64,000 nucleotides of DNA from a virus (IMGVR_UViG_3300037400_002919:4424-68423); one strand, 5' to 3'; counted from the stretch's first letter, positions 57,533 through 64,000 are shown. Translations and numbers: made by a program. Notes: a model not told the origin generated them from the sequence alone.

Positions 57533-60382
57533 TCATACTATCCCTTCCAATCTCGCATTCTCGATACAAATCATCATCATCTTTTTTTCTACGTCAAGGG
57601 CGTGGGTCATAAGATAACCTTCGTCAATAGATTTTAATTCCTCCTGTAACATAGAAATAACTTCTTCTATATTCTTCTTTAATTCTTTTTTCTTCTGGTA
57701 AGCCCGAAAATCCTTACTGCTTGTAAAAACCTTACCATCAACTTCAAATCCATTGATTAAGTTACAGTCAAAGCTATATCTACCTTTATTCAATAACTCG
57801 GTGTTACCATGTTCGGCATTCTCTATCTCGTACTCATAGTCCTTTTTAAACTTCTCAAATTCTTCCTCTGTCATTTCTGCTGCATGAACATCCTCAATAT
57901 CATTTAAAAAGTCTGGTGTCCAGTTATCTCCGTCCCATTTTCTTAAAGTTGCCTTGTATACTTTTTCGCCTACTATAATTTCCATAATAATTCCTCCTTT
58001 ATAAATTTAAAACCCTTGCGTTTTCTAAGATAGCTGCTTTAGCAGACTCAGATAACGTCAGTCTATATGTACGGGTATGGTCTACGTTGTACCTATCAAC
58101 TTTTGTTAAGAACCATCCGCTAGAAAATCTCTGAATAGTAAACTCTGTCCCCATCGGCTGTCCGTTATAGTTAGCAGGAAAATGCTGACAATGTAAGCTG
58201 ACTCTTGCTATTACACCGACCATAGCCTTTTTGGAAATGTTCAACTTTTCCTCGATATGCTCTATGGTCTCCAAAATATCCTCATAGGATATAGTTCTTG
58301 CCTTTGCACGTGACTGCACTTCATTCAAAGCCGCTTCAATCTTTTCTTTGTTGTTAATGTTAATCTTCATAATAATTCTCCTTTCAAATCATAGTAAACA
58401 AAGCGTCATCCTTGTAACCAATCAATTTCACATTCCCCCCCATATGCCATCTTATTAAATCAGACCTAAGTATATTGTAGAACCTTCTTGTACCATAATT
58501 GACTAAGATGTAATAATAACCTGTATTTAATGCTTCATTTCCATACACATCAAAATCAAGCTCAGGCGAATTGCATAGAACCTCTATCATGTTTAAATCC
58601 ATTTCCTCACCCTCTGCCGTAACATGGAAATTACCATTCTTAAACTTCTTAATAATCATTGTTATCCTCCTTGATGATATAAGTTTTGTTATTGCTATTC
58701 TTCTTGCCTTTGTTAAACGCTTCAATAAAAACAGCCTTTCCGTTTTTGTAATGTCTCCAGTGTCCTCTGACAGACCATGATTCTGTGTGTCTCTGATTAT
58801 GTCGCTTGCCACGTTCCTCGTATTTATAAATTTTATTATTGACATATACGATACCAGAATTATTGTTATTTCCTTTAGTGGCTTCTCTTACTGTTTCTTT
58901 TGGTTTTTCCTTTAGGGTAATTTCCTTCTTTTTATTTAAAGAAGTCTCTACCAGATAGAATGTTTCAAGAAATAGAATAAAAGAATAATTGTTTTTAAGT
59001 ATACCCTCTTTGTCATTAATATCAAAGATATGTATACTGTTGGCTGCATGAACAAAAAAGTTTATTTTCGAGCCGTTAATTCTGTAACTAAACAACCTCT
59101 CTCCCATAATCTCTACGTTTACCATATTAAGAGAATACGTCTTATTTCTCAGGATTGCTATACTTTTGTTAAGGGCTATTATATCCATTTTAAAATCAAG
59201 TGCTTTAAAAGGAAGAACCACTTTATTAAATTTATTAAAGTTCATATTTATCACCAGACCTATTACAAATTTGATTTTCGTTTTTCAAGGGTATCAGCGA
59301 GGGAAATGTTTTTGCGATTCCCCCACCGACCCAAAATGCCCCGTTTGGACACGAATTAATTTATTTTATCCATTTCGTTTTCAATCACCATATCAAGATT
59401 TTCCTTGAATGAATTTCCCCCAAAAAGGGAGTCAAATTCCTCTATATCATCTACTACTAAATCCGTAAAGATGTGTTCAGAAATAGCCTGTAAAAATTCC
59501 TCAAAGTGTTCCTTCACAAACTCATGTACCGCATTCTTTTCCATTTTAAATTCCTCCTGTCTTAATAATTTTTATTATCGGTCAATATGGTTTCCATTAT
59601 TGTAATGAAGCTAGTATCATCAGGGTAGTTGTCTAAAATATACTCATAACCTTCCTTAAAGGAACGATACTCAAAGAAACTCATTTTACAAGCATTGTAT
59701 ATCTTTGCCATGGTTTCCGTTTCAGACAGGGTTTCATAGTCGTCCTCAATGGTGTCAGGCTTCATAAATGCTTCAAATTTTTCAACATATCCATCATCGG
59801 GATGGTTAGCTTTAAGCCAGTTTACAGCCGCTTCCAAATCGTTAAAATAAGGAACTTTTTCCTCATAATATTTTTCAGCAATATCATGAACATCACTGTC
59901 AAATATAAAGTTGTCTAAGTTGTCAATAATATTTTCGACACTGGTAAAAACCTCGTTTTCAATGCCAAAAATATTCATAGCACACTTATCCTGCAAGGCA
60001 TAATAAACCTTGTCATTAGTCTTAAACTTTATACAACCCAAATCGTAACTCTCTAAAATCTCACTTAACTTCATTTTATTTTACCTCCTAAATTCTCTTT
60101 AATATAATCAGCATAATAATTTAAAACATCATAGGCACATTTGTCAAATGCTATAAGACAATCAGACTTATTGCTCCCTTGATACTCCAGATTGGCAATA
60201 TCTACAAGATAATCAGGAACATCTTTCAAAGGGAAAACTTGTATTGTTTCAATGATGTATTGAGTGGCTTGAATGCGACCAGCCCAGCCGTACTTGTCTA
60301 TCTTTTTTTGAGGAAGTTCCTTTGCCTTTTTGCAATCATTGATGTAAATTCTTAATCCATTGATAAATTTTTTCTTGTCCAT
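57533..60382 (-). CDS. Early-region hypothetical genes (57533-57985, 57999-58370, 58384-58659, 58649-59254, 59356-59544, 59562-60074, 60071-60382)
   Basis: Co-oriented ORFs each with an AGGAG(G) SD; several are strongly acidic; 58649 ends in a VRGHWRHY..GK.VFI motif. Confidence 0.6.
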
Positions 60383-60451
60383 TTCATCTACCTCTTTTCT
60401 TGAATTTTTATTTTTTAGTTGTTGTTGTCTCACCCCCCTCTCCATGCTTTT

Positions 60452-60480
60452 ATTATAGCACAATTTGAGCTATTTGTCAA
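60452..60480 (-). promoter_or_regulatory. Early promoter with ATAGC-N9-GCTAT palindrome
   Basis: TTGACA-N17-TATAAT plus TG. Confidence 0.8.
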
Positions 60481-60635
60481 GTGTTTTTTAATTTATTTTT
60501 TCATAATCTTGAAACAATATTCCACGGACACCGTACTTAACTGTATTTCTAACGCCACTAAATCATTTCTTGTGTCCTCATTCAATTCAGAAAAAACATT
60601 TTCCAGCGATTGAACCCAAATCGCTCCGTTTGGAA

Positions 60636-63007
60636 CTATTCCCCTATTCTATTAAAGTACCTCTGAAATATATCCTCTAATGTACTTTTAGCGTGTGTTT
60701 TCTTTATCCAGTAACGCTGGTGAGATGTAGCATTTCTGAAAACTACTCTCCATGTGGATTTGTCCACATTATACAACAATGAAAATTCAGGTATAGCAAT
60801 CTCATAGCCGCCCTCGTTGTATAGCTTCACGCTACTGGTCGCTTCGACTATGCTCCCCTTTTTCTCTACTACATAATCATAGTAGTCAATATTAGGGAGA
60901 TTCTCAGCCCACAGAAAAACAGGGATATTTGCCTTGCCAGAGCGGAAAAACTCTATGTATTCTTTTAAATAAACGTCTATTTCCCTCCTGTTAGTCTCTT
61001 TATGAGAAACATTCATCGCCATCTTTTCATACTTCTTTGTCAGCTCATAATTACCTATGCCAAAAGGAGCATACCCAGTCACAATGGCTACATCACCGAA
61101 CACATAAACATCACTAGCCCAGCCGTAAATGTTAGTGGTATAAAACGATGGATTTTTATACCTTAGCAGGAATTGCAAATCGCAATAACCAACCTTGATG
61201 ATTGTTTTATGATGTTCTTCAACAAATTTTCTAGTAACTAACACTTTCATTGTATTATCCTCCTTTATCCTTTGACTTTTCTAATTGTACCACTAATATA
61301 GATATACGCTAATTTTGATACGTCTCTCTTTTTAGTTGTTTTTACGTAACCAGAGAACCCTTTTTTGCTAAGATAGTTACACAAACTATCAAAATCGTAC
61401 CAGTGTAAACAGTTGCGAAGCTGGTTTTCTTTTATTACCACACTAGCCGCAGTTTCCGTAAAATTCATCGCAAAGTCATACAGGTCTGACTTCATATCGT
61501 TGTTCAAATTGGAGTTGACAATTCTCTCCATCAAGCCTACACAATAGTCAGACAGGGTTATTCTTTGGAATTGTTCATCCCTGTATAATCTGTTTAAACC
61601 CAGCTTGTACGCTTCGACCGCTAACAGAGCTTTGTATTCCTCGTAGTTATTGACTTCTTTCCTTAACATAATCATAATAAAACCTCCTCCACACATTCCA
61701 TAATTCCCCCGTACATGGCTGCCATTACAGGCAGCCATGCAGGGTTAAAACTGGTTAATTCTAAGCAGGTAACGTAGCCTAAAAGCATAGAAGCCACAAA
61801 TAACACAACCAGCAGTAACGCCTTTGCCATTAGAACAATTCACCTCCTTCTGTAAACTCGTATCCATTCGCTCTTATGGTTTCAGCCACGATTTCATCAG
61901 AGGTAAGGTAGTCGTATTCCTCCTCCAAATCTCTATATAGTTTCTCGCAAAGCTCATCCTTTACTTTTCCCAGTTTTTCTTCTATAAGATTAGACAAACG
62001 AGGATAATAACCACCATTATCAGCTTCTACCGTCTCACTAGGGTAATATTGATAGGTAACCCTTTTTACCAGCATATTTAAATTATACTCAATAGAGTTA
62101 GACAAGCGTACTAACCGCTTCAGACCAGTTTTCTCTGCAAACTTCTTAAAATCAGAAATTTCCCCTGTAAAACTAGCTCCGTCCCCCTGCGAATAGAAGC
62201 CGCTAAAATTCATATCGTCTACCTCAATACCGTACTCGTTTGCAATCTCCTCGAACCCTTCATATACAGGCTCGTACCAGTCATGTTCTACATTAATGTA
62301 GCGGAACTTCTCCAGAACCTTCTCTTGTGTCTTTGCAGCTAATTCGTCAAACTGAAAAACCTTAATAGTTACTTCTCTCATTATTCTTTTCCTCCTAAAA
62401 TTTAGTTTAGGGATAATTCCCTTTAGAGTGCCAGCCAGCAAAACCAACTAGCACGTAAAAGGAACTATTTTATAGATTCTCTAACTCCTCGAACAATTCG
62501 GGATAAAACTCGAACATCTGGGTTCGAGAAAATGATTTTATCTCAAACACCGCCAACAGGAAAAACTGCTTTTAGCGATTAAACAGAAATCGCTCCGTTT
62601 GGACACCCCCGAAGGGGAGGGGGATAACCCCCTTATTATTCATACTTGAACTTGTTCTCTTTACCACGTACCTCCCAGAAATCTTCGTTATAAACATCAC
62701 AGCCGACCCCCTCCCATGATGTGCCGAAGTGGTCTACGAGCAAGCACCAACGACCTAACTTGTCGGAATAAGCCAGAATAAGCTCAAAGGTTTCCTGCAA
62801 CCAGTTTGCTTCTGACTCGGAGCTAATGTCTGTCAAGTACCACTGAAAAATTTCTGGGTACTCGTATTCATCCTCCTCCTCATTGTAAACAGAGGGGATA
62901 TTTTCCCAAATGTTTTCATCCAATTCTGGGATATTGTTGAGTAATATTTTGTTCTGAATAAAAGATGTTGCGAAACGATAACTAACTCTACCGAATACCT
63001 TTTTCAT
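60636..63007 (-). CDS. Early-region hypothetical genes (60636-61250, 61265-61675, 61830-62381, 62636-63007)
   Basis: SD-supported ORFs; 61830 (FSGFYSQGDGASF) and 62636 (EIFQWYL...HFGTSW) are highly acidic. Confidence 0.65.
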
Positions 63008-63052
63008 AATAATCTACCTCCATATTGACTAAATAAAATTTCTTATAAGACA

Positions 63053-63139
63053 TTAACAGGACACCGCCACGATTACCCAGCTTAAAAAGATGGATAAGGG
63101 TAAGGATAAAATCTCTAGGATAATTTTTAGACTATCCAC
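63053..63139 (-). CDS. 28-aa hydrophobic peptide (type I toxin-like)
   Basis: SD AAAAGGAGGTGAG, GTG start, MDSLKIILEILSLPLSIFLSWVIVAVSC. Confidence 0.55.
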   Translation of the reverse strand: MDSLKIILEILSLPLSIFLSWVIVAVSC

Positions 63140-63256
63140 GGCATCTCACCTCCTTTTAGCTAAATGAAACCAACCAGATTGATTGATTTCAGTCAGCTAA
63201 AAAGCTGATTGCTTATTTATCTTAATGATTCGGTTGAAGCACACCTCCGAACAGAA

Positions 63257-63878
63257 CGCCCTTTTTATTTGACAACCTCACACTAGCTTGATTTTCCCTT
63301 TTCCTGTTGTCTTGTAACTGTTAGATGTTTACATCTAGTTGACACTAACCAGCACATAGTCAGACGGCTACCCTACATCTAAAAACGTTACCATTCAAGG
63401 AAGCTGGATTCATGTATCATTTTTGTTACCTGTATGACAAACAGGGCTTTTCGCCAGATTGGAAAAACTAACTAATGTGAAGTTGTCAAAGGGCGGAGAT
63501 TAATTGTATTATATTAAACTCCATTTCGCTTCTATTTTCTCATTCCATATCTTTAGACCAGAACCAGACAAACCTCTATTTTTTAGCGTGTCTATGGTTG
63601 GGTAGCCAGAGCCATAGCCGTTTTAAAAAACTTTGAAAAAGTCTTTTATCTAGCCGCCAGATACTTCCTAAGAAATATCCACGAAACTTTATTTAATTTT
63701 TCGGGTTTAATCACTCACCCGACCGATTGCGTATCGGTAGACGACCTCTATTACAGGAGAAACCTTCCTTTTACCGTTTTAAAAAGTTACGGCAAACTTT
63801 TGGTACTTTTTTTATCTTGTTCGGTTAGGGTGTACATCCCTACGTCATTTCTTATTAGGTCGCCCGATTGACGACCAT
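63257..63878 (-). ncRNA. Candidate large structured RNA / leader
   Basis: No ORF of 60 aa or more; begins at a consensus promoter; several hairpins and a ~35-bp long-range stem whose mismatches are G.U only on the minus strand. Confidence 0.5.
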
Positions 63879-63884
63879 GCTTTT

Positions 63885-63913
63885 ATTATAGCACGCAACG
63901 TGCTATATGTCAA
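63885..63913 (-). promoter_or_regulatory. Consensus promoter containing a perfect 9-bp inverted repeat
   Basis: TTGACA-N17-TATAAT; TATAGCACG-caa-CGTGCTATA at 63887-63907. Confidence 0.85.
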
Positions 63914-64000
63914 GCACTTTTTAACTTGTGACTCTAGTTAAGAGGTATAGCTTTTTTTACAACGTCTATACACGTTGATGTTGGTGATAACACTTCACGG

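Follow-up and report, generated by a model that had tools for sequence, protein, structure and literature searches.

Bacterial and phage RNAs longer than about 500 nucleotides (nt) that retain a conserved and intricate fold are rare, the known examples being ROOL, GOLLD, OLE, HEARO, and raiA. The few known large classes are guide RNAs, RNA-only assemblies, or still unexplained. The leader of the lambda N gene combines nutL and an RNase III-sensitive hairpin in about 220 nt and includes the protein-binding boxB, and RNase III sites occur in the early mRNA of T7; in these systems, long duplexes act through RNase III both on mRNA stability and on how the first gene is translated. The mRNAs of type I toxins such as tisB and zorO typically possess structured, processing-dependent 5' untranslated regions (UTRs), and the known put RNAs comprise two stem-loops in about 70 nt. 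ROOL averages 581 nt and GOLLD often exceeds 800 nt; they are phage or prophage RNAs with many helices and multistem junctions, their carriers are phages of gut, rumen, and Lactobacillales-type bacteria, and their function is unknown (PMC5737381; bioRxiv 10.1101/2024.12.08.627333). GOLLD rises during lysis (bioRxiv 10.1101/2024.12.08.627333). In 2023, Fremin, Bhatt, and Kyrpides catalogued structured RNAs in the viruses of IMG/VR, with about 10,000 candidates (PMC10690425). The present analysis concerns the window IMGVR_UViG_3300037400_002919:4424-68423, a 64,000-nt stretch of a gut phage of 68 kilobases (kb), and within it the long RNA with which, judged from its position in the sequence, the first transcription unit of the early (lytic) programme begins as a 5' leader. 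This leader is with high confidence a genuine, functional structured non-coding RNA kept by selection, and it represents a new RNA family, known from one clade of gut phages of about 70 kb. Its most likely function, to which a probability of roughly 45% is assigned, would be that of a processed early leader acting in cis.

The leader resembles ROOL and GOLLD in being phage-borne, several hundred nt long, and rich in helices. It differs from them in forming the 5' end of a protein-coding early operon, without a 3' end of its own, and in coming so far from one narrow clade, whereas they span several phyla. It is also the same type of object as those in the catalogue of Fremin and co-workers, which are intergenic phage RNAs supported by covariation and in many cases located upstream of genes, and it originates from the same source collection. 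Positions are counted from the first base of the window, and the element is delimited as follows.

63140..63880, minus strand: whole conserved structured leader RNA of 741 nt, from the predicted transcription start (+1) to the base before the GTG start of a peptide gene

No minus-strand open reading frame (ORF) of at least 25 amino acids (aa) lies between 63140 and 63880, and 57 stop codons are spread over the three frames, in agreement with a sequence-only reading of the window that had described the region as ORF-poor. That reading had drawn the element at 63257-63880; its start holds, but the conserved element runs about 115 nt further, to the Shine-Dalgarno (SD) sequence at 63153-63149. 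Folded as the minus strand, the 624-nt stretch has a minimum free energy (MFE) of -183.6 kcal/mol, with z = -7.98 relative to dinucleotide shuffles; folded as the plus strand, it has one of -140.5 kcal/mol (z = -2.29). Local 200-nt windows give z-scores of only -1 to -3.7, because the signal sits in long-range helices. In total, about 200 base pairs (bp) and at least three multi-helix domains are accommodated in the 741 nt.

Relatives of the phage were recovered through the product of the next early gene, a 123-aa protein without known relatives (ORFan), which falls into seven 90% clusters of 78-90% identity in gut-metagenome assemblies of ENA and Logan. The contigs of these relatives, several of them 68-71 kb long, align with the window genome from a 104-aa gene through the early genes. 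They provided 12 distinct leader sequences with a mutual identity of 79-97%, on gut-metagenome contigs of about 70 kb. The position of the leader is the same in all relatives, and it abuts the peptide gene in 12 of 12.

The RNAalifold consensus of the 12 sequences amounts to -169.0 kcal/mol, as compared with -113.9 kcal/mol for the reverse complement. Canonical pairs make up 98.0% of 2354 pair cells, and because 269 cells are G.U the fold is specific to the minus strand; the structure mirrored onto the other strand is only 87.5% canonical. Compensatory double changes occur in 26 pairs (72 cells) of the RNAalifold structure, against 14.2±2.0 pairs in within-pair shuffles (0/500) and 2-6 with slid partners. 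Since RNAalifold rewards covariation, the count was repeated on the MFE structure of the window sequence alone, in which 91.8% of cells are paired and 28 pairs are compensatory (controls: shuffles 14.2±2.3, slid partners 4-9). Furthermore, a column-swap null was applied, which keeps the phylogeny by replacing the 3' partner column with a real column of the same majority base and variability. Over 1000 trials it gave 9.0±2.3 pairs (maximum 16) and 15.9±4.8 cells (maximum 33); overall, this type of null yielded 9-10 pairs (maximum 16-20). The covariation spans the hairpins at 63796-63770, 63738-63722, and 63721-63702, several stems of domain B, and the long stem of domain C. Compensatory change is therefore beyond phylogeny-aware controls, as in a structured RNA, and the earlier claim of selection on RNA structure is borne out by the 12 homologues (26-28 compensatory pairs against 9-14 in controls).

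The leader is as conserved as the non-synonymous codon positions of its neighbour but lacks a coding signal. Its variable sites are distributed over the three phases as 79/74/82 (p = 0.81), without codon periodicity. Over 59 sequence pairs with leader identity below 93%, the mean identity is 0.879 in the leader, 0.884 in paired columns, and 0.873 in unpaired columns, and in the adjacent gene it is 0.873 at codon positions 1 and 2 and 0.630 at third positions. Purifying selection acts on paired and unpaired leader positions alike.

These observations bear on the proposal that the locus is a DNA-level element, such as a remnant of a miniature inverted-repeat transposable element (MITE), a packaging site, or a replication or single-strand origin, or else a chance fold. 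Such an explanation has very little probability left, even though the long inverted repeat superficially resembles terminal inverted repeats and the locus lies near the assembly junction, about 2.7 kb from the small terminase gene. The compensatory and abundant G.U changes, in the arms of the repeat as elsewhere, make sense for a single strand only; nothing in the leader is repeated elsewhere in the genome; and the position is the same in all relatives. The MITE and packaging-site alternatives of the sequence-only reading are rejected because of this single copy, one-strand G.U compensation, and fixed locus. Moreover, no copy at unrelated loci and no target-site duplications were found, the exact motifs tried are absent from IMG/VR, JGI metagenomes, and GTDB genomes, and conservation is well above the synonymous level.

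A more likely place for a packaging- or origin-type DNA element is the unstructured 945 nt across the promoters. This ORF-free region (L002:128-1072 in record coordinates, just outside the window) lies past P1, the upstream copy of the early promoter, and is followed by a divergent operon with the 104-aa gene, a Bro-N/ANT protein (so labelled because the corresponding protein on the contigs of the relatives is assigned to these Pfam families), further small ORFs, and, at the window start, the gene of the large terminase. The region belongs to a stretch with 88-91% identity to the relatives, more conserved than the RNA leader. Its fold z-scores are -0.66 and -0.16 on the two strands. With no sign of RNA folding in this neighbouring ORF-free DNA, the fold signal is specific to the leader. 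It is here, and not in the leader, that iteron-like direct repeats are found: a 23-mer and TATCGAGAGGGT, each present in two copies (spaced by 36 nt and 44 nt, respectively), and GGGAAATAG, present in three. The region is probably a DNA-level site (origin, pac, or regulatory array).

The fold of the leader, from 5' to 3', consists of the elements below.

63858..63876, minus strand: 5'-terminal hairpin GGUCGUC/GGCGACC with one U.G pair, beginning 3-5 nt past the predicted +1
63826..63842, minus strand: hairpin UAGGG-N7-CCCUA, from predicted fold and alignment
63702..63796, minus strand: domain A, four adjacent hairpins at 63796-63770, 63768-63739, 63738-63722 (ACCGAU/AUCGGU), and 63721-63702
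63513..63697, minus strand: domain B, about 185 nt folded into one long, irregular stem-loop, the lower stems of which are variable and covary
63496..63512, minus strand: A/U-rich single-stranded linker from domain B to domain C, with 14 of 15 scored columns (381-395 of alignment A2) invariant in 12 sequences
63257..63495, minus strand: domain C, a long-range stem closing a multi-branched interior of about 160 nt
63430..63444, minus strand: hairpin CCUGU/ACAGG within domain C
63322..63337, minus strand: hairpin UAGAUG/CAUCUA within domain C
63141..63212, minus strand: 3' hairpin of 22-30 pairs, whose 3' arm holds the SD sequence GGAGG (63153-63149)

All five local hairpins named in the sequence-only reading are present where it had placed them, and the mismatch it had noted in the first one is indeed a U.G pair on the minus strand. 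The pairs of this 5' hairpin switch among G-C, G.U, and U.G between lineages; the hairpin is not universal, its 3' arm being missing from homologue L017. At 63842-63826, L023 and L029 drop one G and one C together (UAGG/CCUA), which is a compensatory indel, and L005 retains this hairpin and breaks the alternative long-range pairing. Domain A has 76% invariant columns and five pairs with compensatory changes, one of which (columns 93/113, in the 63796-63770 hairpin) appears as AU, GC, GU, and CG across lineages. Domain B contains 10 pairs with double changes and ends in a conserved apical hairpin, CUAUGG...CCAUAG (63617-63592); at 63677-63660 its fold is ambiguous, with a local 8-bp hairpin as the alternative.

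The long-range stem of domain C, likewise foreseen, is real. An inverted-repeat search located its arms at 63268-63297 and 63461-63490 (30 nt, 83% complementary, 163 nt apart), and with small bulges it comprises 30 pairs (63495-63461/63297-63257), 28 of them Watson-Crick and 2 G.U, with double changes in 7 pairs. The G.U pairs expected on the minus strand are thus found, but they number two and not three, a minor correction. The interior of the domain has 72% invariant columns, rising to 80-90% around 63390-63330. The few unpaired cells in the long stem are due to a mosaic pattern: homologue L033 matches the version of L017 and the window in some leader segments and the majority version in others. 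The mosaic segments, at A2 columns 403-435 and 484-505 (window ~63488-63456 and 63408-63387), suggest recombination between lineages inside the leader. A candidate antisense promoter at 63483-63512 (plus strand, 10/12) was rejected; because its -35 element lies in the covarying stem arm and varies, selection there is on pairing and not on a promoter. Between domain C and the 3' hairpin lies a conserved 3' segment. The 5' (anti-SD) arm of the 3' hairpin is invariant, and an alternative local hairpin, UCAGCU-UUUU-AGCUGA, can be drawn there; a translational switch at this hairpin is possible on the modelled pairings.

The transcription unit that the leader opens is composed of a promoter and a series of small genes.

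63885..63913, minus strand: early promoter P2, with TTGACA (63913-63908), a 17-nt spacer, and a TG-extended -10 TATAAT (63890-63885)
63053..63139, minus strand: gene of a 28-aa hydrophobic peptide with GTG start and one predicted transmembrane helix, the first ORF of the transcript
62636..63007, minus strand: gene of the acidic 123-aa ORFan used to find relatives, the next early gene

In a scan with the extended sigma-70 consensus, P2 scores 12/12 with TG present, and its predicted +1 falls near 63878-63880, which supports the earlier call of a consensus promoter with +1 near 63878. The promoter encloses the palindrome TATAGCACG-N3-CGTGCTATA with 9-bp arms (inverted-repeat search), presumed to be a repressor-bound operator. 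The virus record in IMG/VR has 68,423 nt, the window being its bases 4424-68423, and the assembly is circular because the record ends overlap by 38 nt. The leader locus occupies the right-hand end of the window, on the minus strand, near this junction. Across the circular junction, 167 nt upstream of the P2 copy (window 63874-63922), lies P1, an identical 49-nt promoter copy (record 79-127). A third, similar copy at about 60442-60481, with 83% identity over 40 nt, stands at the start of a further early unit. The -35 element and the TGn -10 element are conserved among the relatives, most of which have a gene of 126-130 aa between P1 and P2, itself an ORFan without PHROG match; from this comparison, the window genome appears to have lost it. 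The contigs of many relatives end within about 40 nt of the P1/P2 repeat.

The peptide gene directly continues the leader, and no minus-strand terminator-like site was found between 63880 and 63007, the first one downstream being at 62528. The gene is conserved in 12 of 12 homologues, with an in-frame 3-codon deletion in L017. Its variable sites are distributed over codon positions as 9/4/20 and residues 5-26 change almost only synonymously, a codon pattern by which the 28-aa ORF is genuinely coding. An out-of-frame mini-ORF, MPWIV, upstream of the peptide start was discarded, as it is not conserved and its ATG is deleted in L004, L005, and L008. For the early genes that follow, neither Pfam nor PHROGs offers a relative, and they provide no clue to function. 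Directly 3' of the 123-aa gene, gene callers predict a second micro-ORF of 29-32 aa in many relatives (e.g. L007:1660-1755, L016:1407-1502); the matching place in the window, 62470-62556 (minus strand), holds a 28-aa TTG ORF, and a terminator-like hairpin on the same strand (62528-62509) overlaps it. Strong AAAGGAGG SD sites point to a Firmicute as the probable host. Terminase matches are at most 38% and fall to Faecalibacterium, Bacillus, and Clostridium phages, and a search for the host through the Rep_3 initiator against plasmids gave a best match of only 25% identity.

Among the roles suggested in the sequence-only reading, that of a regulatory leader of the peptide at 63139 is the best anatomical fit, since no terminator separates the two and the SD sequence lies in the last hairpin. 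The processed cis-acting leader would work as follows. It would be transcribed first from the operator-bearing promoter and would act mainly in cis, with the 5' hairpin protecting or stabilising the transcript end. The near-perfect 30-bp stem of domain C and the 3' hairpin of 22-30 bp may serve as double-strand-specific, RNase III-type processing or occlusion sites, and the latter may mask the SD sequence of the peptide gene in alternation with the local hairpin. By such masking and processing, peptide translation and early-message stability would therefore be gated after transcription. This post-transcriptional lock could back up the repressor with a second safeguard, and the switch would probably be set by a factor of the host or the phage that recognises the conserved cores of domains A and C.

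The leader shares with the lambda N leader and the T7 early mRNA that it is structured and heads a repressor-controlled early operon. Unlike the lambda N leader, it is more than three times longer and has conserved multi-branched cores, and no boxB-like motif was identified in it. A further difference from lambda and T7 lies in the host, probably a Firmicute, where RNase III cleavage of the leader would be a putative step.

Several points weigh against a processed cis-acting leader or against the strength of its evidence. Processing by RNase III is purely what we infer. The SD sequence is masked only moderately, its unpaired probability ranging from 0.14 to 0.62 across homologues (partition function), which is similar to that of the next gene's SD sequence, and the SD-masking pairs are all invariant, so that covariation cannot confirm them. 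Global closing helices at 63835-63818/63253-63239 had to be rejected, as they are broken in L005, L008, and L017. The homologues form one narrow clade of 79-97% identity, so that independent events are few, and with recombination visible between lineages the compensatory cells are not all independent. In addition, 741 nt and about 200 pairs far exceed the need of any known SD-masking leader, and unpaired positions are as conserved as paired ones. Together with this size and loop conservation, the maximal, tandem-duplicated promoter suits an RNA that is made in quantity and has its own task.

Two further rival readings deserve mention at this point. The peptide may be a membrane toxin, with a leader that keeps its mRNA inert until processed, in a type I toxin-like module that might act in plasmid-state addiction or host shut-off. 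This is an improbable reading. The peptide is small, conserved, and coding, with a single transmembrane helix; like the type I toxins tisB, zorO, and fst/par it is hydrophobic and within 25-35 aa, its SD sequence is buried in a conserved long hairpin, and a structured, processing-dependent 5' UTR would be in keeping with tisB and zorO. However, the UTR of about 740 nt is several times longer than the 40-200 nt generally known for such toxins, and the gene heads a repressor-type lytic operon with other early genes instead of an autonomous cassette. No antisense promoter was found either: a consensus scan, which is a weak test, gave no plus-strand promoter-like site in 62100-63480, and in no lineage is the TTGACT conserved on the downstream side of the peptide gene accompanied by a usable -10 element. 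Nor does the unpaired probability of the SD sequence (0.14-0.62) lend clear support to its masking.

Alternatively, the nascent leader might modify RNA polymerase for read-through of early-operon terminators, as a put-like cis antiterminator. It lies directly downstream of an early promoter, and terminator-like hairpins are enriched in 60000-64000 (8 found against 2.2±1.4 expected), three of them on the minus strand downstream, at 62528, 60636, and 60535. However, the leader has ten times the size of put and comprises several domains that are conserved independently, and no comparable leader follows the other early promoters that share the operator, which makes this role highly improbable.

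A processed leader in cis has its strongest competitor in a stand-alone, ornate trans-acting RNA, ROOL/GOLLD-like in kind and unrelated in descent, with which the peptide gene is merely co-transcribed; this is a possible reading, held with clearly less confidence. Such an RNA would be made in bulk at the lytic start and possibly excised, and would serve as a scaffold, decoy, or RNA-only assembly in host takeover or counter-defence. Its size of 741 nt, its roughly 200 pairs in at least three multi-helix domains, and its perfect-consensus promoter, present twice in tandem, all favour this idea. The near-equal identity of unpaired and paired columns (0.873 and 0.884), the long invariant single-stranded tracts, and the invariant domain cores point in the same direction. 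Furthermore, the stem of domain C compensates freely around a near-invariant interior, a pattern familiar from the processing stems on either side of a mature RNA. ROOL and GOLLD are likewise phage-borne, and GOLLD increases in lysis (bioRxiv 10.1101/2024.12.08.627333).

On the other side, the RNA has no intrinsic terminator or defined 3' end before the SD sequence, and its junction with the peptide gene is kept in 12 of 12 homologues. A pseudoknot search by covariation gave single-event candidates only, at chance level, and convincing palindromic kissing loops were not found. Among possible trans targets elsewhere in the genome, the best complementarity covers 14 nt within the rep gene (E = 0.16), also at chance level. 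Relatives in Rfam are lacking as well. With cmscan at the gathering threshold, the whole window has 0 matches to Rfam 15 (4227 covariance models); at E<=10, the region 62900-64000 matches neither ROOL (RF03087) nor GOLLD (RF01998), and at E<=5 nothing relevant was found in six homologous loci and the upstream region. The only Rfam matches are to miRNA, snoRNA, and sRNA families at chance level, with E of about 1-10, well below gathering. ROOL, too, is located in phages or prophages, often next to tRNA genes, but the leader has no tRNA neighbours, as ARAGORN detected no tRNA gene in the 64-kb window. By the lack of any covariance-model match, membership of the ROOL and GOLLD families, a candidate of the sequence-only reading, is excluded, and its proposed comparison with Rfam turned up no relevant family in the window or six relatives. 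OLE, HEARO, raiA, group I/II introns, RNase P, tmRNA, and 6S were also considered and dropped, since no covariance model matched.

The narrow distribution, which also counts against a trans-acting RNA, was found consistently, and the leader family is known only from this clade. A DNA similarity search of INPHARED phages and PLSDB plasmids gave no match, and a single-protein search of IMG/VR with the 123-aa neighbour returned nothing. A profile search of IMG/VR and GTDB retrieved 82 loci with homologues of the 123-aa protein at 37-54% identity. Across 87 distant-homologue loci (these 82 and others fetched earlier), the RNA was absent by a full-leader nhmmer profile and by a covariance model of domain A. 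A single match at E = 4.7 among the distant loci is ascribed to chance. When the invariant blocks were sought by exact and degenerate scans, IMG/VR, JGI metagenomes, and GTDB genomes contained none, and one 18-mer match (L025), having no further similarity, is also put down to chance. Other members of the clade were not found in IMG/VR by protein, profile, or motif searches. The phages of L018:7184-7363 and L019:4088-4267, which have a 43%-identical 123-aa homologue and no long leader, carry a gene for a 422-aa reverse transcriptase (RVT_1) about 3.3 kb downstream.

The processed cis-acting leader thus remains the preferred reading, and the finding has a wider meaning under either mode of action. 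Rfam misses such clade-specific large RNAs, and catalogues based on IMG/VR presumably do so too, the present family having been recovered only from Logan and ENA assemblies; a comparative pipeline confined to IMG/VR would, we infer, have had no homologues of the leader. The new family adds an informative context to the large phage RNAs, namely a maximal-strength, operator-bearing promoter, the first-transcribed position, and a membrane micro-peptide directly behind, and because of this context the function of the leader is directly testable. There is some chance, smaller than that of the cis-acting leader, that it represents a new ornate RNA class of about 740 nt, specific to this clade, which is transcribed from the operator-controlled early promoter, cut from the leader at its duplex stems, and active in trans when the repressed phage turns lytic. 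Such a stable RNA, RNA-protein assembly, or RNA-only assembly might titrate a host factor or a defence sensor, and, if this were true, it would be a functional analogue of ROOL and GOLLD in an experimentally tractable context. The leader could thus reveal either a new post-transcriptional layer over the early genes or a new trans-acting phage RNA.

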